Source of the DNA: Myxococcota bacterium
GTDB lineage: Bacteria > Myxococcota > XYA12-FULL-58-9 > JABJBS01
Direction of reading: 5' to 3'
DNA: 28,226 nt
NCBI GenBank assembly: GCA_036339465.1
Contig: JAYZAY010000055.1
Span: 1-28,226 of the forward strand
Both the position numbers and the translations under genes were made by a program. Shown here piece after piece: positions 17 to 27,221 of the stretch; position 1 is the first letter of the stretch, and every line of letters starts with the position of its first letter. Below the pieces are notes generated by a model, which searched no databases, was not told the DNA's origin, and saw nothing but the letters and a program-made list of their open reading frames with translations.

Positions 17-1084
17 ATGACAGCTGTAGCCCTTAAGCTCATGATTCGCGATATTCGAGCCGATGGTCACCTCAGCCTCGCTGAAGCCAAAACGCTCCTA
101 AAGCCAGAAAACGGCATCGGAAACAAAATCGACGGTGATGAGTTTGAACTCATCTCTAACTTGCGTACCGACATCAAGAAATTCGAAGCATCCACCAAGC
201 CCGCAGAAGAACAAGCAAAAGAACTCACCGTGGCCAACAAGGACCGCGTTCTCGACAAGGGCACCAAGATTGGCGCCATTGTCGGTGGCACGCTTGGAGG
301 ATTGGTAGCCATTGCAGCCGCCATTGGTGCTGGCAGCGTCGGTACTTTTTTCAGCACAGTTATTTTTAGCGGCCTCCCGATTTTGGGGATTGGTGCAGGC
401 ATCGGAGCATTGGCCGACCACATCCACGGTCGCCGCAAGCCGGTCACTAAGGCAGATGTTGAAAACAACACCGAAGCCGCAAAGACAGCAAAAGCCCACC
501 ATGTGCATGACGAGGTCCAAGACGGCGTGAAGAAAGGAGCTAAAATCGGCGGCGCTATCGCAGGTGTCTTTGGAGTTGGTTTTACCCTCGGCATCATCGG
601 TTTCTGCATCGAAGGCGGAGTGGCCGCTATCCCCGCCGCATTGGGTCTTTCTGCCCTCGTAGCCATTCCCCCAGTAGGTATCGCCGTAGTCGTCCTAGTT
701 GGCCTAGGTGCAGTGGCTGGCCTCATCAGCTTAAAGATGCGTCAAAACCGGAATGCAAAGGTACCATCCGGACCTATCAGCGCAGACCCAGAAGCCAAGA
801 AACTCCTCGATGAAGCCCTGAGCAAAGGTGCCACCGCCAAAAACCACGTCAAGAGCGGCATGAAAACCGGCACCATCGTGGGTGGTGTAGTCAGTGGCCT
901 CGGCGCTATCGCTTGGGGCGTCGCTAGCGTGAAGGTCTTCATGACAAGTGGGGTGGCCATGGGCTTCATGATCACCGGGACGCTTTTCCTTCCCCTCGGC
1001 GTGGCTGCTTTAACCCTCACCGGCGCATGTGCTGGCATCGGGGCTTTGGTTGGTCACATCCGCAACAAGCGCGCGGCTGAATAA
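17..1084 (+). CDS. Orphan membrane protein, 355 aa, with three glycine-zipper hydrophobic hairpin repeats and an N-terminal degenerate EF-hand-like pair
   Basis: ATG at 17 with GGAG at 7-10. Three repeats start KGTKIGAIVGG (aa 81), KGAKIGGAIAG (aa 173) and SGMKTGTIVGG (aa 280); each has two GxxxG-rich hydrophobic segments and ends in a basic patch (HGRRK, KMRQNR, HIRNKR). No recognisable enzyme motif. Confidence 0.8.
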   Translation: MTAVALKLMIRDIRADGHLSLAEAKTLLKPENGIGNKIDGDEFELISNLRTDIKKFEASTKPAEEQAKELTVANKDRVLDKGTKIGAIVGGTLGGLVAIAAAIGAGSVGTFFSTVIFSGLPILGIGAGIGALADHIHGRRKPVTKADVENNTEAAKTAKAHHVHDEVQDGVKKGAKIGGAIAGVFGVGFTLGIIGFCIEGGVAAIPAALGLSALVAIPPVGIAVVVLVGLGAVAGLISLKMRQNRNAKVPSGPISADPEAKKLLDEALSKGATAKNHVKSGMKTGTIVGGVVSGLGAIAWGVASVKVFMTSGVAMGFMITGTLFLPLGVAALTLTGACAGIGALVGHIRNKRAAE

Positions 1085-11646: not shown

Positions 11647-11813
11647 CCAAAGATTCAGCCCCAATAAAATAGCCACTGACATTGAAAGCTATTAAGGGTT
11701 TCATGACTCCTTAGAAGCCAGTCTCTATATTCTCATGGAAAACTCAGCGCGACTGCTGATTTTTTTGATAGATTGTTCGAACTTTATTGGGTGGGTGAAT
11801 ACCAAGCCCTGAT

Positions 11814-13223
11814 TTAGGCAGCGATAGCGTCTCTTACTTCGACTTCCCGAAATAGCCGATTAAGGTCCTGTTTAAGAACTTTAAAGAGAGCCTTCTTTTG
11901 GGAGTCATCTGCAAAATCAATATCGCAGAATTTTCGAATACATGCAGTACCCACATCCCGAGCCTTATCGGATTCAATGATGCCCTCTTTCAGGGCAATT
12001 CGAGCTGCTTCGGCGTAGTTTTCGAAAACCCAAACCCCCTTCTTTGCCAATCGACGTTTTCTCATATCCGACATCCCCGTGACATTGTGGATAAAGACCC
12101 CCAACATCTGATCAGGGTGTTTTTCGAGCATCTCTAAGCCAACTTCCGTATCTTTTTGACCACTATCACCCACAAAGGTAAACTTTCCTTCGGGGTAGAG
12201 GCGGAGGTTGTTCTCAAAATTACTAAATTTCTTCGTTCCAATTCGCGATTCAGGAAACAAATGACAGAAGTCTCCGTAAAGTATCGTCGCAGAGGCGAGT
12301 CCCGATTTCTCCAGAGAATTACGAGTGTAATGGTCCATCAATCCAAAACCATCTTTCGGTCGCGCCGTCAGAAATGCAACCCCCAGGCTCTTGCCTAGGT
12401 CTTCCATGTCCGTTCGCCGTAAGGCCTGAATAAACTGCCCACTGCCCGGATAGATCGTCGATTTGGGATAACGGGTATCTTTCCAACCACAACACACCGT
12501 ATCATCAATATCTGCAAACACCCGTTGTTCGAGTACGTCGGTTTTCGGTTTGATTGATTCGATTTTTGCAATCGCCGTTTCTGTATTTGAGGTCCCGACG
12601 ACATGGCCCAGAATAACATTCAAACTCTTACCGATAAATCGTTTATCTAAGCACGCTTTAAACTCCCGCACATTGTCTGCATCAAGAGTTAAAATCAGTT
12701 CCAGAGCGAGTTTGGGTTTCCTGCAATAACTCTTGTCATACATGGTCTTGAAAACTCGAGATTTGACCTCAGGGGTCAATTCGCTTGCTCGGGCCTTAAG
12801 CACGGTCAAGCGCTCTGTCACAGTGCTCACCCAACAGGAATTTCCACTTTCCCGGAGAAGATTCACCATGTGAGCACGCTTCAACACCGTATTCAGGCTT
12901 GTCGAATCCAGAGTCGCTAGAATCTCGGTAATGGCAGCATCGTTGTTTGACCTATTATTTGTAGCAATAAGCCTCAAGAGAATTTTCTCTTCGTTGGAAA
13001 GGGTATTTTTCGGCTGGTCGAATCCTAGCGGCGGTAAGACGATCCCCTGAATTGCATCTGGATCTCCCAACTTATTCAAACCAAGATCCGTGGGTAGAAT
13101 TGTCAGGGGCTCGGTTTGTTTGGGCTCTATATTCAGCACTTTCTCTGCCTTCTTCGTGGAGGCAAGAATAGGTGCCGGCAAAATGAGTGGACTAAGGCCA
13201 ATTGCTCCAGAGGTTTTCACCAT
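11814..13223 (-). CDS. App1/DUF2183-like HAD-superfamily (phosphatidate phosphatase-like) protein with an unassigned N-terminal helical domain, 469 aa
   Basis: VFADIDDTV (DxDxT, 12498-12512), FLTARP, a conserved Lys region (GTKKFSNF) and FVGDSGQKD (GDSGQKD at 12150-12170); CAGGAG RBS before the ATG. Confidence 0.75.
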   Translation of the reverse strand: MVKTSGAIGLSPLILPAPILASTKKAEKVLNIEPKQTEPLTILPTDLGLNKLGDPDAIQGIVLPPLGFDQPKNTLSNEEKILLRLIATNNRSNNDAAITEILATLDSTSLNTVLKRAHMVNLLRESGNSCWVSTVTERLTVLKARASELTPEVKSRVFKTMYDKSYCRKPKLALELILTLDADNVREFKACLDKRFIGKSLNVILGHVVGTSNTETAIAKIESIKPKTDVLEQRVFADIDDTVCCGWKDTRYPKSTIYPGSGQFIQALRRTDMEDLGKSLGVAFLTARPKDGFGLMDHYTRNSLEKSGLASATILYGDFCHLFPESRIGTKKFSNFENNLRLYPEGKFTFVGDSGQKDTEVGLEMLEKHPDQMLGVFIHNVTGMSDMRKRRLAKKGVWVFENYAEAARIALKEGIIESDKARDVGTACIRKFCDIDFADDSQKKALFKVLKQDLNRLFREVEVRDAIAA

Positions 13224-13254
13224 CAGCTCCTGAAAAAGGGGTATTCAAGGATGG

Positions 13255-13281
13255 ATATCGGCGCTGAAACGGAGGTGTTGC
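13255..13281 (-). promoter_or_regulatory. Putative alternative-sigma promoter GCAAC-N14-GCCGATAT (copy 1)
   Basis: Minus strand GCAAC acctccgtttcagc GCCGATAT, ending 31 nt before the ATG at 13223; the same motif and spacing precede the next two genes. Confidence 0.7.
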
Positions 13282-13536
13282 TTGTTTTTGGAAAAATGGA
13301 CCCAAATTGACAAAAAAGAAATTAAGGAGATAAAAAAAAGGCACCCAACTCATTCTCTAACCCGTCTAGGGAGTCAAACAACCCCAGCAGACACCTCGCG
13401 AATAAAATCCAGCTGTGTATCCAAAAAAATCGTGGGGTGGAGTACTCGATAATAATGCAATGCCCCTATCAGACAAGTATCAAATCTGGGCTAGCGAATC
13501 TAAGGTCCTAGAGTAATTCCATGCTTGTGGCTAAAT

Positions 13537-15441
13537 CTACGCCCTCTGCATTGCAGACAACTGCGGAAGCACTGGGGGGAAGATCTCGGGTGCCTCTTTC
13601 AACATCCCGATTCTTTCGAGTTTCCCCCTTTGTTCTGGAGAGAGAATTCCCCTTTTCGAAGCTTCTTTCTGCATGGAAATCCAGCTTCGAAGAGCCGCAT
13701 GTTGACCGTCGTTTCGCGAAACCTTCACATCACCATAATCTTGCTTATATACGCGCAATGAATGGTACATGAAATTCCACTGTTCGGGGCTCACGGATTG
13801 GTGAAGCTCGAAACTCTTCTTCAATATTCGGTTCTTCGCAAATGAAAGACCAATGCAAGAAATAATGGTAAAGATCATAGCGGGGATGAAAATCATATTG
13901 AGACCGGGAACAAACGTTGCCGCAGCCATGGCCGCGCTTCCAATCACGAGACCCGCTGTCTTTGCCACACTCACCGCCTTCGCCGATATAGGCACTTTGG
14001 ATGTCGGACTCTTCAGGTCTTTGTAGGTTTCGTAGGCACTGGCTCCGATGGCCAAAGCCTGAAGTGCTGGAAAGACGTAGCTAAGGGCTGTGGCAATAGG
14101 CGCCAACCCCTTGGCGACAGTCCGTCCTAAAACTCCAAAGATCCTCCCCATCACCCCCACAGCCATCCCTCCCACCGACAAGGTTGTTAGAGCCATTTGA
14201 ACTTTGTTATTGGCTTGGAGTTTTTCCCATTTCTCAACCACATCCAGTTTTGACTTTTTCAACGCAGATTTTGGAATCTTTCCCAAAAGAAACTGGTCGA
14301 AACGTGTTTTTTCGTCATGGAGTTTGTCCCAAGTATGGCTGAGTTTCGCACTGATTTCTTCATCCTCCGGATGCTCCATCTTAAGGCACTGCAATTGAAC
14401 CAAATTGCGAGAATACATCTGGAGATTTTCTTTGTCGGGATATTGATTGAAAAGTTTGATAAATACCTTGTCTCTTTTCGGATCATCTTGCGACTGCGAA
14501 AGCCAATGCTGAAGGGCCAAATGGTCCGGAACAATGTCGCCCTTATGGGATTTCTGATGTAAATACATTCCCAAGGCCACCACAGGAACCAGGCCAGTCC
14601 ACACGGCAGCAGTAGCAATGGCCACGGTGTGGGCGGAAATGCCAGTCATGCGCCCCACACAGCGGGCAAAATTTGCAAAATCATGGCCGACGGAAGCTTC
14701 ATGGGCCAAGGTTGCGTTATCCATGAGAGCCGCGGTAATTGGGTAGCCTGAACTCATGAGATGCTGAGTCAATCCGCAGGCAAGTAAAGCATAACCTGCT
14801 GCAGGATGACTGTCTTTGAGTTTCATGCCACCGATAACCGCGAGCGAATTCAATGCGAGACCGGGCAAAGATCCCGAAAGAGAAATCCAAGCGCTCATAC
14901 CATCCGCTCCCATGGCTTCACCCAGGGCGTTTGGCTCTCCACCACGCACCCAAGCTTTGCCGAGGGCACCATCGTCACCCACATCATGGGCACCGAGTAA
15001 TCGACCGAGGGCTTTCATAGCTTCACTAAAGTTTTCAGCGTCGCCGATAGCCTCAGCATTGTCCCAACCGTCCACTTGAAAACGTGGTTCACGGCCAGGC
15101 GCATAATCGTGAAGGAGGTGCCCCCCTAGATAACCATGACCCACAACTTCGTGGAGTGACGTGTCCACACCCGTGGTCGTCATGAGCACAGCAGTGCCTA
15201 CGCCGGAAACAGCGCCGATGGTGGGTCGGATGAAACCGAATTTAGGGTTCAGGGGAACGCCACGTCGTGCATCTAAACGACTCGTATCAACAAGATCCCG
15301 ACGAAACCCAGGATCTCGAGCCAAGTCACACTCAGAACCCCAAGATTCATTTGATTCAATGGCGCTAGGTCTAGGTGCAACCTTTGCACCCCTCTTGGCG
15401 TTCCTGATGAGATTGGAATTAATCGGTGAAATAGTCGTCAT
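13537..15441 (-). CDS. Orphan polytopic membrane protein, 634 aa: M50B-like zinc-protease motifs, hydrophobic hairpins and a C-terminal helicase-associated (HA)-like domain
   Basis: Likely start is ATG 15441 (MTTISPINSN) after AGAGG. LHEVVGH at 15136-15153, ISLSGSL, GHDF at 14677-14688; C-terminal WNFMYHSLRVYKQDYGDVKV...LRSWISMQK...GILSPEQRGKLERIGM at 13603-13779. Confidence 0.7.
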   Translation of the reverse strand: MTTISPINSNLIRNAKRGAKVAPRPSAIESNESWGSECDLARDPGFRRDLVDTSRLDARRGVPLNPKFGFIRPTIGAVSGVGTAVLMTTTGVDTSLHEVVGHGYLGGHLLHDYAPGREPRFQVDGWDNAEAIGDAENFSEAMKALGRLLGAHDVGDDGALGKAWVRGGEPNALGEAMGADGMSAWISLSGSLPGLALNSLAVIGGMKLKDSHPAAGYALLACGLTQHLMSSGYPITAALMDNATLAHEASVGHDFANFARCVGRMTGISAHTVAIATAAVWTGLVPVVALGMYLHQKSHKGDIVPDHLALQHWLSQSQDDPKRDKVFIKLFNQYPDKENLQMYSRNLVQLQCLKMEHPEDEEISAKLSHTWDKLHDEKTRFDQFLLGKIPKSALKKSKLDVVEKWEKLQANNKVQMALTTLSVGGMAVGVMGRIFGVLGRTVAKGLAPIATALSYVFPALQALAIGASAYETYKDLKSPTSKVPISAKAVSVAKTAGLVIGSAAMAAATFVPGLNMIFIPAMIFTIISCIGLSFAKNRILKKSFELHQSVSPEQWNFMYHSLRVYKQDYGDVKVSRNDGQHAALRSWISMQKEASKRGILSPEQRGKLERIGMLKEAPEIFPPVLPQLSAMQRA

Positions 15442-15470
15442 TGACTTGCCTCTTGTTGTTTCCTGATAGA

Positions 15471-15497
15471 TTTTCGGCAACAAACGGCATCGGTTGC
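15471..15497 (-). promoter_or_regulatory. Putative alternative-sigma promoter GCAAC-N14-GCCGAAAA (copy 2)
   Basis: Minus strand GCAAC cgatgccgtttgtt GCCGAAAA(TCT), ending 29 nt before ATG 15441. Confidence 0.7.
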
Positions 15498-15530
15498 CTA
15501 CGCCTTTCCTTAATGATGAAAGAAAATCGG

Positions 15531-15545
15531 TGACTCAATGAGTCA
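15531..15545. promoter_or_regulatory. Perfect 7-1-7 palindrome, possible operator
   Basis: TGACTCA-A-TGAGTCA, 33 nt upstream (minus-strand sense) of the GCAAC element of motif copy 2. Confidence 0.4.
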
Positions 15546-15596
15546 TTCTAGGGTGCCTGAATCGGCGAAGAAACAGAGAGCTTCTGAGATAAGCCT

Positions 15597-15926
15597 CTAC
15601 TTAACATTGACGAATTGAAGTTCACTTGAATGAACATAGTACTTCGCATCAAAATTAACGTTTTTTCCCTCAGAATTGATGCCTGTAGCTTCCACACCAA
15701 CATAGCCATAGTGGTTGTAGATGGCTCTTTCACTGGTGGGATGCCATTCAGTGGACAGAGTCGACAGCATCACCCGAATGTTCGTCAGTCCTGGCACCTT
15801 AGCCTTAAATAGAGTAACCGCGTCGTTCTTAATTTTGGTTTCAAGAGCCGGATCAGGATTGGTGCCCGTAGTACCGATGGTGCCGTCAAGAATTGGATTG
15901 CTGCGAATGCTTGCTGAAAAGTTCAT
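15597..15926 (-). CDS. Small orphan protein, 109 aa (predicted helix followed by beta strands)
   Basis: ATG at 15926 follows a very strong RBS (GGGAGGAGG) and motif copy 3; no signal peptide or TM segment. Confidence 0.75.
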   Translation of the reverse strand: MNFSASIRSNPILDGTIGTTGTNPDPALETKIKNDAVTLFKAKVPGLTNIRVMLSTLSTEWHPTSERAIYNHYGYVGVEATGINSEGKNVNFDAKYYVHSSELQFVNVK

Positions 15927-15964
15927 GGTATCCTCCTCCCGAGAAGTCGAATGAGCAACGAAGA

Positions 15965-15991
15965 TTTTCGGCCTCATGCAATTTTTGTTGC
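15965..15991 (-). promoter_or_regulatory. Putative alternative-sigma promoter GCAAC-N14-GCCGAAAA (copy 3)
   Basis: Minus strand GCAAC aaaaattgcatgag GCCGAAAA(TCT), ending 38 nt before ATG 15926. Confidence 0.7.
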
Positions 15992-16519
15992 GTCAAAAAA
16001 CTTGAAAACGTTCTTATTCGAAAATCCTGTGGTTTTTATTTTTGAACAATGCGCCACTGCCTCAAGGCCTGGTATCCCCACAACATCCCAAAAGCCAAAC
16101 CATTGAGGTTTCGTATCCAAGACTTTTTTCTCAAGGCAGGTTGGGTGAGAATTCCGAGATTTGTTTTCAATGTTCAAACCGCTACGTTCTGGTCTGCGGA
16201 TTCGACTGTATCAAAGTAGCCCCTGGTGAATCATCACTCAACAACGAGCGTCGTAAATGGGAACCAGTCGAAGCTATTAACCTGTGCTCTTTTAGACAAT
16301 GGCATCTGAGACTGACGAAACAAACGGTAACACCCAGCTTCCCACCACCATCCTCCAAAATGAACTTTTTGGGAGCATTCGAAAAGCCAATGACCACGCC
16401 CATATCTCTTACCCCGACAGTGAATATTGAACCCTGAAGTCGGCTATGTTAGTGGGCTTTTAGTTTCATTGAACCTGAGGCTAATCCGTTCCTCACCTTA
16501 TCATAGCTTGGAGATCTCT

Positions 16520-23220: not shown

Positions 23221-24996
23221 TTGACGAGTATCGGTGATCAGATGAGCGACTATTCCAAATCAGATAATAGTGAACTCACAAAAACTTGGGACTCCAAAAA
23301 GAAGAGTTGGTCTAGTCGTCTGCCTATCATCGATTCGTATCTGAAAGAACAACAGGACTTAACCGCAGTTGAACGGTTCGCTCAATTACACGAACACGAA
23401 AGCACCGTTCTCCAGGGAAAATACTATCAAGATTTGCTGCCAACCAATCTACCGGGAGAATCGGAACAATACGCGTTCGAAGTCGATTTAGACAATTGCA
23501 CTGGCTGTAAGGCATGTGTCACCGGATGCACGAGCCTCAATGGACTAAAAGATGGAGAAACCTGGCGCGATGTCGGTTTGGTCATTGGTGGAACAGGTAG
23601 CCAAGCCACCACTCAGCATGTAACCACCGCATGCCATCACTGCCTCGAGCCTGCATGTGCAAAAGGCTGCCCAGTTAACGCCTATGTGAAGGATGAAGAA
23701 ACTGGAATAGTCAAACACCTCGATGACCAATGTATCGGATGTCAATATTGTACCCTAACCTGCCCCTATGACGTTCCCAAATTTTCAAAATCCATGGGGA
23801 TTGTTCGCAAGTGCGACATGTGTATTGACCGATTAAAAGAAGGCGAAGCCCCTGCATGTGTTCAGGCCTGCCCCACCGGGGCCATTAACATTTCAGTGGT
23901 AAACAAAAGGGACGTTCTCCGAAAAGGCGAGACTGGGATGCTTATTCCAGGCACGCCTCCTTCAAACATCACCTACCCAACAACCACCTATAAGAGCAAA
24001 AGTGCTTCCATTAGACACACCCTACCCGCCGATTATTATCGTCCCCAGCAACAACATTCCCATTGGCCTCTAATCTTTCTTCTGGTTTTATCCCAAATGT
24101 CTATTGGCGTCTTCGCCATCCAAAGAAACTTTTTGCTTGAAAGCCTTGCATTCGGGTTTCATTCATTGGTTTCTCTCAGTTCTCTTCTAGGCCTAGCGAT
24201 TATGGGACTCGCACTAACCACCAGCCTCTTCCATTTAGGCCGGCCACAATATGCTTTTCGAGCCATCCTGGGAATAGGGCACTCATGGCTTAGCCGCGAA
24301 ATCCTTACCTTCGGAATCTATTTCAAAGTGGCACTTATATTTACCGCTGCCTGTCTTGTTGAGTCTGTTCCGGAGCTTAGAAATAAACTTCCCACCTGGT
24401 ATCCCGATGGACTTTACCTGCTACCCATTCTATCCAGTATGACCCTCATAGCAGGGGGAACCGCCCTTTTGTCGTCTGTGATGGTTTATCATGACACCAA
24501 ACGCATTTTCTGGAATTGGCTCCGCGGCGGATTTAAATTCGTCTCAACGACACTCCTTTTAGGGATCACCTCGCTCCTATTATTAAGTTCAGCTTACCTC
24601 TGGAACTCGGAGACCCCTCCCACTTTCATCCGTGACTTCCTGAACAATTCATTGATTCCATATTCAGCCTTACTTATGGGCGCCAAGTTGTCCCATGAGA
24701 TTTCGCTCTTCCACTATTTACGTGACTCCCACAATTCCGCCATGAAACGTACAGCTCAACTCCATTTCACCGAGCTACTTAACTCCACCGTGGCCCGAGT
24801 GGCATGTGGTCTTTTAGGCGGAATTCTCATCCCGCTTCTACTCATGCACGACCTCAGAAGTTCCCCGGCCCCCACAGGCCCGATGGTTCTCATTATGGGC
24901 TTTGGGTCCATTTTAGTCTTTTGCGGAGAAGTTCTCGAACGATACCATTTCTTTTCCGCTGTCGTTGTATGGAAGATGCCAGGAGACTTCAGATGA
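23221..24996 (+). CDS. Fusion of a DmsB/NrfC-like 4x[4Fe-4S] protein and a DmsC/YnfH-like membrane anchor, 591 aa
   Basis: [42 protein letters not shown]...PACVQACP; then about 8 TM helices with [37 protein letters not shown]. Start is either TTG 23221 (GGGAG RBS) or ATG 23242. Confidence 0.88.
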
Positions 24997-27221
24997 AATC
25001 CCCCTCAGCCAAAGGGCTCATTCGGTGGGCTTCCAATTTAATACATCAAGTTGACGGCCCTTTAACTCAGCAGCTCCTTCGCACCCCCGGAGAATTCGGT
25101 TTAGGACAAGTTCCCGCGGCCCAAAAACCTACCGCAACCACCTCCTTAACCTGTGGCTACTGCTCCACTGGATGCAGTTTGACGGCCCATCTAAAGGATG
25201 GAGAAGCCATCAATCTATCTCCGAACTCCGAATACCCGGTCAATCTCGGAATGGCCTGCCCCAAAGGATGGGAAGCGTTAACACCTATGGGCGCCTTAGA
25301 CCGCGGAACCACACCTCTGCTGCGCTCGAAAGCAGGTCGAATGGAAGCCATCGATTGGCACGATGCGATGACGACCTTTACGGATAAATTTAAAGAGATT
25401 GGTCGAAAACATGGTCAGGACTCCATCGCATTTTTGGGAACCGGCCAGATTACGACCGAAGAGATGGCTCTTTTAGGCTCTCTGGCTAAATTTGGCATGG
25501 GCATGGTTCACGGAGATGGCAATACAAGACAGTGTATGGCCACTGCAGTTGCGGCCTATAAACAAAGTTTCGGATTTGATGCACCGCCCTATACCTACCA
25601 AGATTTCGAAGAATCCGATGTCATTATTTTGATCGGAAGCAACCTGTGCATTGCTCACCCAATTATGTGGGAGCGAATTTCTAGAAACAAAAACAATCCC
25701 AAGGTCATCGTCATCGACCCGCGAAAAACAGAAACCGCGTCAGCTGCAACCCATCATCTCGCAATTTATCCAAAATCAGACCTCGTACTTTTTTATGGAT
25801 TGGCAAATATACTCATCAATGAAAATTGGACAGATAACACCTTCATCGAGAAACACACCGATAACTTCGAAGAATTTCGGAAATTCGTGTCGCAATTCAG
25901 CATCGCTTCAGTATCCGAAGCCACTGGCATTGAGGAACCACAATTATTTGACCTTGCAAAAACCATTCATGCGTCAAAGGCCACCTCCTTTTGGTGGACC
26001 ATGGGAGTCAACCAAAGTCATGAGGGCGTACGAGTCGCTCAGTCAGTCATCAATATTGCCCTCATGACCGGAAATATTGGAAGACCAGGAACCGGAGCGA
26101 ATTCCATTACAGGACAGGCAAATGCGATGGGTTCTCGGCTCTTCAGTAATACCAGCTCACTACTCGGCGGGCATGATTTCAAAAACGCGGAGCACCGAAA
26201 AAAAGTTGCTCAACATTTAGACATCCCCGAGACCAGTATTCCGACCACGGCGGGAATGGCCTATGACCAAATTGTGGAGGGTATCCTTTCTGGGAAAATT
26301 AAGGGGCTCTGGGTGATCGCAACGAACCCAGCCCACTCATGGATCCACCAAGGAAACCTACGCGACATTCTAGGCCGATTAGACTTCTTAGTCGTCCAAG
26401 ACTTATACCCGACCACCGAAACTTCCCAATATGCAGACCTTTATTTTCCATCTGCGGGTTGGGGGGAAAAAGAAGGTACATTCATTAACTCCGAACGTCG
26501 CATTGGACTACTCAAAAAAGTCATTCGCGCTCCGGGTAAAGCGCTCTCCGATTTTTATATTTTCAAACTGGTTGCTGAGTATTGGGGATGTGGCGACCTT
26601 TTCACGCAGTGGAGCGACCCTGAGTCCACCTTTCAAATCCTCCGAAAAATAACCAAAGACCAACCCTGCGACATCACCGGCATAGAGGATTATGCTCAAA
26701 TAGACACTCTTGGTGGAATCCAGTGGCCTCATCCAGAAGGTTCGAAAACACCAAATCCGCAACGGAGGCTATTCGAAGACAACTGTTTTTTCCACGCCAA
26801 TAAGCGAGCTTATTTTCATTTCGAAACACCCCGTGACATACCAGAAAAGACCAACGAGGAATTCCCATTTCTCCTATTGACGGGACGAGGGTCCTCTTCA
26901 CAATGGCATACACAAACACGCACCTCAAAATCCCCTGTATTGCGAAATCTCTATCCCAATGCAGTGTATGCCGAAATAAATCCACTGGATGCCGAGAGGC
27001 TTGGCATCCAACGCCATTCGGAGGTACGCATACTTTCGCGCCGGGGAAGTGTTAGGGCCAAAGCCTTTCTGACCACCAGTATTCAGGAGGGACACATATT
27101 TATGCCCATGCATTACGAGGAAACCAATGTCCTAACACATGCCTCTTTCGACCCCTATTCACGACAACCCTCCTACAAAGCATCGGCAGTGAACATTCGA
27201 CCACTGCAACATTGGGAATAG
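24993..27221 (+). CDS. nasA: Mo-bis-PGD nitrate reductase catalytic subunit, assimilatory NasA/NarB type, 742 aa (start corrected)
   Basis: ATG 24993 overlaps the upstream stop (ATGA) with an [16 protein letters not shown]...[12 protein letters not shown] (Mo-ligating Cys), [49 protein letters not shown]; no Tat signal. Confidence 0.88.

Follow-up and report, generated by a model that had tools for sequence, protein, structure and literature searches.

A paired promoter-like box in a Myxococcota genome and its proposed reader, a sigma-28-family factor encoded in a type III secretion cluster

We analysed a stretch of 28,226 nt from a Myxococcota bacterium (assembly GCA_036339465.1, contig JAYZAY010000055.1; hereafter the window), in which three consecutive minus-strand genes are each preceded by a promoter-like box, GCAAC-N14-GCCGAWAW. 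Positions of the genes, the boxes and the further features discussed below are collected in Table 1. A pattern scan of the whole window returned exactly three matches, all on the minus strand, while 100 dinucleotide-preserving shuffles of the window gave a mean of 0.00 matches and not one shuffle with three or more. The 14-nt spacers of the three boxes have nothing in common, and a Shine-Dalgarno-like stretch stands before each of the three start codons. An earlier reading of this DNA (the original prediction) had claimed three identically spaced copies with unrelated spacers, set 31, 29 and 38 nt from their start codons and missing in front of the nuo, yceI-like, peptidase and nitrate genes of the window, and all of these claims were borne out. 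Allowing one mismatch added only two sites, both within coding sequence (five found versus 3.8 expected), and left the nuo, YceI-like, zinc peptidase and nitrate/nitrite genes without a box. With the -35/-10 numbering taken from the fliC promoter of Pseudomonas aeruginosa, as given in the available text of PMC12784957, transcription is predicted by analogy with sigma-28 promoters, where it begins about 7-8 nt past the box, to start near positions 13247, 15463 and 15957 for promoters 1, 2 and 3. Three metatranscriptome runs of the same study shared almost no sequence words with positions 11800-16100. Terminators separating the three genes were considered and discarded, as the region holds six terminator-like structures versus 5.3 expected in shuffles; the weak hairpin between gene 3 and promoter 2 is therefore only a hint.

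Table 1. Genes, boxes and other features of the window, and gene order of the secretion cluster on contig C64
Feature	Position	Strand	Description
Promoter 1	13255..13281	-	GCAAC-N14-GCCGATAT, 31 nt 5' of ATG at 13223
Promoter 2	15471..15497	-	GCAAC-N14-GCCGAAAA, 29 nt 5' of ATG at 15441
Promoter 3	15965..15991	-	GCAAC-N14-GCCGAAAA, 38 nt 5' of ATG at 15926
Promoter of gene at 17	C21:78662-78688 (probably adjoining contig)		perfect GCAAC-N14-GCCGATAA, 121 nt 5' of ATG
Gene 1	11814..13223	-	469 aa, APP1-type phosphatidate phosphatase catalytic domain (PF09949, E 4e-9)
Gene 2	13537..15441	-	634 aa, polar N-terminus, C-terminal HA (helicase-associated) domain (PF03457, E 2.5e-11)
Gene 3	15597..15926	-	109 aa, Ser/Thr/Asn-rich N-terminus, no Pfam family
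Gene at 17 (fourth gene of the set)	17..1084	+	355 aa, glycine-rich, hydrophobic
Terminator-like hairpin	15531..15545	-	weak, between gene 3 and promoter 2
Cluster order, start	C64		109-aa ORF, 159-aa ORF, TPR chaperone, 157-aa ORF, sigma
Cluster order, middle	C64		SctI-like, SctJ, 347-aa ORF, SctL, N, O, SctP-like, SctQ, FliO-like
Cluster order, end	C64		SctR, S, T, U, SycD-type chaperone

The three genes had been described as orphans, which is right for gene 3 but not for gene 1, with its APP1-type domain, or gene 2, with its HA domain. The product of gene 1 is a candidate secreted lipid phosphatase and that of gene 2 a candidate secretion substrate. A fourth member of the set, the gene at position 17, starts so close to the first base of the window that its upstream region had to be sought on another contig. 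The first 86 bases of the window are identical to those at the end of contig C21 (C21:78794-78879), and because of this exact overlap, which is the whole basis of the join, C21 and the window contig (C55) probably adjoin. A perfect box stands on C21 upstream of this gene, where the original prediction had suggested looking. With the gene at 17 included, the neighbourhood of the window holds four of the ten exact copies of the full motif in the genome.

The genome (G000; 4.17 Mb in 102 contigs, 48.9% GC, 92.8% complete) was scanned for the box using gene calls from a rough, home-made caller of longest open reading frames (ORFs). The full motif occurred ten times with the N14 spacer, compared with two occurrences for N13, one for N15 and none for N12 or N16. 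Eight of the ten copies fall outside the rough gene calls and face an ORF. Another, located 66 nt 5' of an ORF for a 525-aa phospholipase D, was overrun by the ORF caller, and one copy within a gene apparently occurs by chance. When the two bases before CGA were relaxed, the resulting core motif, GCAAC-N16-CGAWA, had 52 matches genome-wide, 24 of them intergenic. The eight control spacings (N12-15 and N17-20) yielded 177 matches with 14 intergenic, each spacing contributing 15-30 matches and 0-4 intergenic ones (Fisher p = 2.7e-9 for the N16 contrast). For nineteen of the 24 intergenic core sites, an ORF on the same strand starts no more than 250 nt downstream, and the boxes are oriented towards genes at distances of 24-195 nt from the start codons. 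The excess at a single spacing, upstream of genes, is the kind of enrichment for which a genome-wide scan had been proposed.

Both halves of the box contribute to this signal. None of the 15 one-base variants of GCAAC showed an intergenic excess. On the other side, the excess is borne by CGATA (31 matches, 18 intergenic) and CGAAA (21 matches, 6 intergenic), and the genome consensus is roughly A-(A/C)-GCAAC-N14-(G)C-CGA(T/A)AAT. The -10 octamer alone was tried as a regulon marker and rejected: 134 of its 961 matches are intergenic, and with 44 facing a gene versus 41 for the reverse complement it is not enriched, so the signal lies in the pair of blocks. A TAAAG-type -35 combined with the same -10 was likewise dismissed, with only one of 26 matches being intergenic. 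From these counts we place the regulon at about 25 promoters in G000.

The architecture of the box is that of a sigma-28 promoter with a different -35. In the available text of PMC12784957, the P. aeruginosa fliC promoter is given as (-36)TCTAAAG(-30) and (-15)GCCGATAA(-8); the window promoters carry the same composite -10 as such class 3 promoters, in the forms GCCGATAT, GCCGAAAA and GCCGAAAA. The spacing is also the same, since the distance from the first base of GCAAC to the G of GCCGA is 19 nt, which corresponds to -34 to -15 of the fliC promoter and agrees with the original claim that GCAA occupies the sigma-28 -35 position. The -35 itself differs, being T(C)TAAAG there and GCAAC at all sites here. 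The gene sets differ as well: sigma-28 class 3 promoters drive late flagellar and chemotaxis genes, whereas none of the 31 downstream ORFs scanned here (28 from the genome plus the window genes) is flagellar and none of the 28 is chemotactic.

A search of the assembly for sigma-70-family genes identified ten: two RpoD-like, one RpoD/RpoS-like (432 aa), one RpoH, five of the extracytoplasmic function (ECF) type and one with FliA/WhiG as its best match. [quoted passage not shown] Its product scores 161 bits against the NCBIfam FliA/WhiG model TIGR02479, which falls short of the 189.6-bit cut-off. Even so, no other family gave it a higher score, and positions 1-223 of 224 are spanned by the match.

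To compare the protein with P. aeruginosa sigma-28, positions were matched with the D, Y, R, S and Q residues as anchors, the numbering of the PDB chain being that of the paper plus 5. According to the available text of PMC12784957, P. aeruginosa sigma-28 uses S224 and Q228 to read the -35, R97 for the extended -10, and D66 and Y76 to hold the flipped A at -11. In the T3SS sigma, D75, F85 and R106 align with D66, Y76 and R97, so that the readers of the -10 and extended -10 are kept (Y as F), and these three columns are invariant in a 16-row alignment of T3SS sigma orthologues. At the -35, S228 is kept at the S224 position while R232 replaces the reading residue Q228, and the recognition helix is SKSWTSRLH, compared with ESRV(C/S)Q in canonical FliA. 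This difference holds when 43 FliA-like proteins of relatives and metagenome-assembled genomes (MAGs) are aligned: 17 canonical FliA proteins have (T/S)ESR(V/I)(C/S)Q or close to it, and all 21 members of the T3SS clade have SKSW(T/V)(S/C)R, except one with SRSWACR. A third FliA-like paralogue with four members has TDSRVCQ. Its loci (L077 and L085-L087, in G014, G007, G020 and G008 of genera g6/g7) score about 168 bits and do not lie beside T3SS genes. More distant homologues of the T3SS sigma in G025, G030 and G023 keep S-W-x-(S/T)-R. Thus, the kept -10 readers and the replaced -35 helix match the kept GCCGATAA and the replaced -35 of the box. Inspection of the regions that read the -10 and -35 had been recommended by the original prediction, and its proposal that the reader is a FliA-like sigma factor of altered -35 specificity gains support from the spacing and enrichment of the box, from these residues and from the operon link described below, all of which are evidence at the level of sequence.

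With R in place of Q228, another recognition helix and a gene inside a non-flagellar T3SS cluster, the T3SS sigma is distinct from canonical FliA; together with its box it lies outside the canonical sigma-28 class in its -35, its -35-reading residue, its gene set and its curated score. The cluster contains SctJ, L, N, Q, R, S, T and U, and SctV is encoded alone on contig C59 (835.6 bits versus an equivalog cut-off of 692). No T3SS secretin scored above the cut-off in the 92.8%-complete assembly (best 118 versus 238 bits). This gene content resembles the 'Myxo'-type needleless T3SS (PMC3459982), known as T3SS* in M. xanthus (PMC12075869), which belongs to the same phylum as G000. At the head of the sigma operon, C64:36653-37129 (L047:8653-9129) encodes a 159-aa protein with a Ser/Thr-rich N-terminal half that is conserved across the phylum and had no match in Pfam or among PDB sequences. 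A role as needle protein, considered on account of an apparent C-terminal likeness, found no support in the same Pfam and PDB sequence searches.

The box is associated with this operon in other genomes. From the 109-aa ORF to SctL, the genes keep the same order in the relatives and MAG loci fetched, and in 10 of 13 related MAG loci the box, or a TCAAC or GAAAC variant of it, stands just before the sigma operon or sctI (three of the MAG loci duplicate genomes G006, G011 and G017). It directly precedes the 159-aa operon-head gene as GCAAC in four MAG loci and as TCAAC in one, and it lies between the sigma gene and sctI as GCAAC in two, TCAAC in two and GAAAC in one. It also precedes the sigma operon in G025, G030, G049, G119, G145 and G156. 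The last three are single-contig genomes of 9-10 Mb and about 70% GC from another family (f17), and they have the same cluster order. With a T3SS sigma profile, matches at E 1e-45 or better were obtained in 180 of the 301 genomes sampled from the phylum (including the unpublished G195, which bears on no other result here), among them 19 of 21 relatives of the same family and order, the misses being G002 and G008. In 24 genomes with the sigma factor, GCAAC-N16-CGAWA occurred 1562 times versus 463 for an N19 control, compared with 226 versus 142 in seven genomes without it. For the exact form GCAAC-N16-CGATAA and a reversed-pattern control, the counts were 647 versus 30 with the sigma factor and 48 versus 3 without.

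The 28 ORFs downstream of boxes in G000, taken from one strict and two relaxed lists and from some of the sites placed inside genes by the caller, were scanned against Pfam. Twelve had no Pfam family. Domains among the others include two of phospholipase D, a Fic domain, a MafB19/Bd3614-type deaminase and a DUF818-type hydrolase, besides a weak leucine-rich repeat (LRR) match, two DUF2505 proteins and a few ordinary enzymes. Polar N-termini without a signal peptide are expected of T3SS substrates. We compared the N-termini of a hand-picked subset of 23 proteins with a box within 200 nt, leaving out two sites separated from a gene by more than 270 nt, two without a nearby gene, one at a contig end and six relaxed or doubtful ones. 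A signal-peptide-like hydrophobic N-terminus was found in none of the 23, compared with 23% of 3179 background proteins, and the median share of S, T, P, N and Q in the first 30 residues was 0.43 versus 0.23 in the background (p = 9e-10). By their sequences, the products of the box-bearing genes are thus probably T3SS substrates, and the lifestyle programme suggested by the original prediction is plausible given this resemblance of the downstream genes to secretion substrates. In genome G007, which has 88 exact sites versus one for the control, the first 30 sites in genome order all have an ORF start 8-230 nt downstream; 22 of these 30 ORFs are without a Pfam family, and the others include an M1 peptidase and a CBM48 protein.

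Two observations on individual sites were made along the way. Contigs C48 (2474-3415) and C49 (107-1048) of G000 each carry a box-bearing gene for a 313-aa protein, one with a thioredoxin-like domain, and the two may be paralogues. On contig C25 of G007, two exact boxes (33836-33862 and 35293-35319) lie 1.4 kb apart with spacers that differ by a single base, suggesting that a promoter-gene unit was recently duplicated in tandem.

Homologues of gene 1 and of gene 2 were each found in three of 30 relatives searched. Upstream of the gene 1 homologues we observed GCAAC-N17-CGATAC in G005 (45% identity), an exact GCAAC-N16-CGATAA in G025 (39%) and GCAAC-N16-CGACA in G013 (25%); a second match to gene 1 in G025 (L132), whose frame reaches the end of the locus, stood outside this comparison. 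The gene 2 homologue of G003 (45%) is preceded by GCACC-N16-CGATAA, and those of G011 and G016 (36%) by ACAAC-N14-GCCGAAG. Since only the G025 box is exact and the others are near-matches seen by eye or by a loose pattern, these boxes are supporting and not decisive. Elsewhere in the window, the longest ORFs at 23221-24996 (iron-sulphur/DmsC-like) and 24804-27221 (molybdopterin oxidoreductase) overlap by about 190 nt, and the true start of the molybdopterin oxidoreductase gene is probably further downstream.

The gene immediately upstream of the T3SS sigma gene encodes a protein of 157 residues and ends 5 nt before the sigma ATG. The protein is variable and polar in its N-terminal half, conserved and helical in its C-terminal half. 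It matched no Pfam family, nor FlgM at E up to 1, and its nearest Atlas clusters are unnamed Myxococcota proteins. A complex of the two proteins was modelled in three runs from our own alignments (16 and 11 rows). The runs scored 0.79, 0.79 and 0.80, with a best control of 0.00, and passed a mark that is reached by 116 of 157 solved complexes and by 2 of 215 mismatched pairs. The runs agreed on at least 31% of contacts, and the predicted local distance difference test (pLDDT) value of the partner was at least 66. In the model, sigma residues 111-190 and 245-247 face partner residues 51-154. The 157-residue protein is thus predicted by modelling to bind the sigma factor and, by analogy with FlgM, is a candidate anti-sigma factor.

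Taken together, we propose that the boxes are promoters read by the T3SS-encoded sigma-28-family (FliA/WhiG) factor, which would control a set of candidate secretion substrates. As judged from sequence, we give this explanation a probability of roughly 0.7. The factor would read the composite -10 GC-CGATAA together with a new -35, GCAAC, which would take the place of TAAAG at the same distance from the -10. The three window genes and the gene at 17 would all have promoters of their own. The regulon of some 25 promoters would comprise mostly lineage-specific proteins without signal peptides, probably T3SS substrates, some with phospholipase D, phosphatidate phosphatase, Fic, deaminase, hydrolase or LRR domains. 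The 157-residue protein would bind the sigma factor as a candidate anti-sigma factor and, by analogy with FlgM, may leave the cell via the T3SS and thereby free it.

Several points weigh against this proposal. The motif, its enrichment and conservation, the location of the sigma gene and its residue pattern are read directly from the genomes; from these we infer which sigma factor reads the box. In G000 itself, both box sites of the T3SS cluster are degenerate, so that autoregulation is not evident there. Most of the 48 exact sites in the sigma-less group belong to G008 (20), G023 (12) and G002 (8). G023 has a distant homologue with the S-W-R helix, but protein and profile searches found no T3SS-type sigma in G008 (97% complete; 20 exact sites versus 0 in the control) or G002 (94%; 8 versus 1). 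G008 does have sctI-J-K, and its contig ends 5.5 kb upstream, after an 1841-aa ORF; because the contig end cuts the cluster, absence of the sigma gene is here indistinguishable from a gap. Conversely, G028 has the sigma factor, yet 0 versus 0 exact sites. The downstream ORFs of G007 also include a subtilase and a protein with a thermolysin-type propeptide, kinds that are usually Sec-exported, and because of these hydrolases the term T3SS substrate may be too narrow. Furthermore, the gene calls are home-made, the set of 23 proteins used for the N-termini was chosen by hand, and the pass of the complex model expresses model confidence and is not a measurement. Finally, canonical fliA, flhA and flhB were not found in the 92.8%-complete G000 assembly.

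This last point bears on the first alternative, in which the boxes are read by a canonical flagellar FliA that is missing from the incomplete assembly, in the manner of the single FliA of Bdellovibrio, which serves the majority of attack-phase genes. The -10 is the sigma-28 consensus, and in the available text of PMC3627812 the Bdellovibrio bacteriovorus motif TTAAG-N16-CCGATA is found in 92 of 140 attack-phase promoters. An organism without a flagellum had been considered and was rejected, as G000 has five flagellin-like matches and FliF. Most relatives of the same family and order carry both a canonical FliA (>200 bits, above the curated cut-off) and a T3SS-type copy (about 155-165 bits), so that the canonical FliA of G000 is probably encoded in the unassembled part. 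The genes flhA, flhB and fliA are often contiguous, and one unassembled piece could hold all three. However, two flagellin genes of G000 use another box, CTAAAGT-N12-GTCGA(T/A)G (C11:174090-174330 and C100:204-360; L012 and L014), the GCAAC half is strict, without excess for one-base variants, and the canonical proteins of the relatives keep the S/Q helix that reads TAAAG. Moreover, four complete or near-complete f17 genomes (G119, G145, G156 and G029) have no FliA above the cut-off, their best match to the FliA model being the T3SS sigma; a canonical FliA therefore cannot be the reader there, and G119, G145 and G156 nevertheless keep the box before the sigma operon. We consider this alternative unlikely.

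An ECF sigma factor had been offered by the original prediction as a second candidate reader. The general ECF promoter pattern fits the geometry AAC-N16-CG, as which the box can also be read (AAC-N16-CGA), and one of the five ECF-type genes of G000, at C86:23760-24308, lies 6 kb from a box-bearing gene. ECF sigma factors usually autoregulate, but when the 300 nt upstream of all five ECF genes were searched for AAC-N15-17-CGW, no match appeared. In addition, the -10 is conserved over (G)C-CGATAAT, which is the sigma-28 form, and across the phylum the box precedes the operon of a sigma-28-type gene. This candidate is accordingly disfavoured, and we regard it as improbable. A transcription-factor binding site or a repeat element in place of a promoter seems very improbable, for although a bipartite site could suit a dimeric regulator, the halves are asymmetric, the -10 half is the sigma-28 consensus, the spacers are unrelated, and the sites are gene-oriented at 24-195 nt from start codons.

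The regulation proposed here, by a sigma-28-family factor encoded with a T3SS, has parallels in known systems. HrpL is a T3SS-encoded alternative sigma factor of plant pathogens, and its hrp box marks scattered effector genes. The logic is similar, but HrpL is an ECF (group 4) factor with another box, whereas the factor described here is of the three-domain sigma-28 type. In the logic of FliA-FlgM and BtrS-BtrA, a sigma-binding partner is exported through a T3SS; BtrS-BtrA of Bordetella is reportedly a pair with a secreted anti-sigma factor in which BtrS is an ECF sigma factor. Here, too, a small, partly disordered protein adjacent to the sigma gene is predicted by modelling to bind the sigma factor, although, in contrast to FliA-FlgM, it matches neither FlgM nor any other family. 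Sigma-28-type promoters before many non-flagellar genes, largely uncharacterised or for hydrolases, are likewise described for FliA of the predatory-type bacterium B. bacteriovorus, where it regulates the attack phase globally, in the available text of PMC3627812. That organism is described there as having a single FliA, which uses a canonical-type TTAAG -35 for flagellar and other genes, while the factor of G000 is a separate paralogue with a new -35 and a tie to a T3SS.

The openly searchable full-text literature, which excludes subscription-only papers and supplements, yielded no description of a T3SS-encoded sigma-28 paralogue or a GCAAC box. Neither of the two papers on the myxobacterial systems, Abby and Rocha 2012 (PMC3459982) and the 2025 paper on Kil/T3SS* of M. 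xanthus (PMC12075869), contains the word 'sigma' (0 occurrences each); a promoter and regulon are not described there, and the effectors are called unknown. For the needleless T3SS, which is needed for prey lysis, PMC12075869 mentions only 'potential effectors'. A box tied to a sigma factor would allow substrate candidates to be listed from sequence alone; the numbers would be about 25 in G000, 88 exact sites in G007 and 5-7 in the 9-10 Mb genomes of the other family. The T3SS sigma family is widespread in the phylum, and it would be an example from nature of a sigma factor that was duplicated and then changed its -35 specificity, with the -10 readers kept and one recognition helix replaced.

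A further, tentative idea, which we hold to be possible but rather doubtful, is that the non-flagellar T3SS, at its origin, received a copy of the FliA-FlgM checkpoint, which survives in Myxococcota. A sigma-28 paralogue with a re-tuned -35 helix, kept in check by an exportable partner from the neighbouring gene, would then turn on both apparatus and substrates as soon as the machine works. If this is true, the box would label substrates of the needleless predation T3SS across whole genomes, also in Myxococcus-like genomes that have both the cluster and the box.

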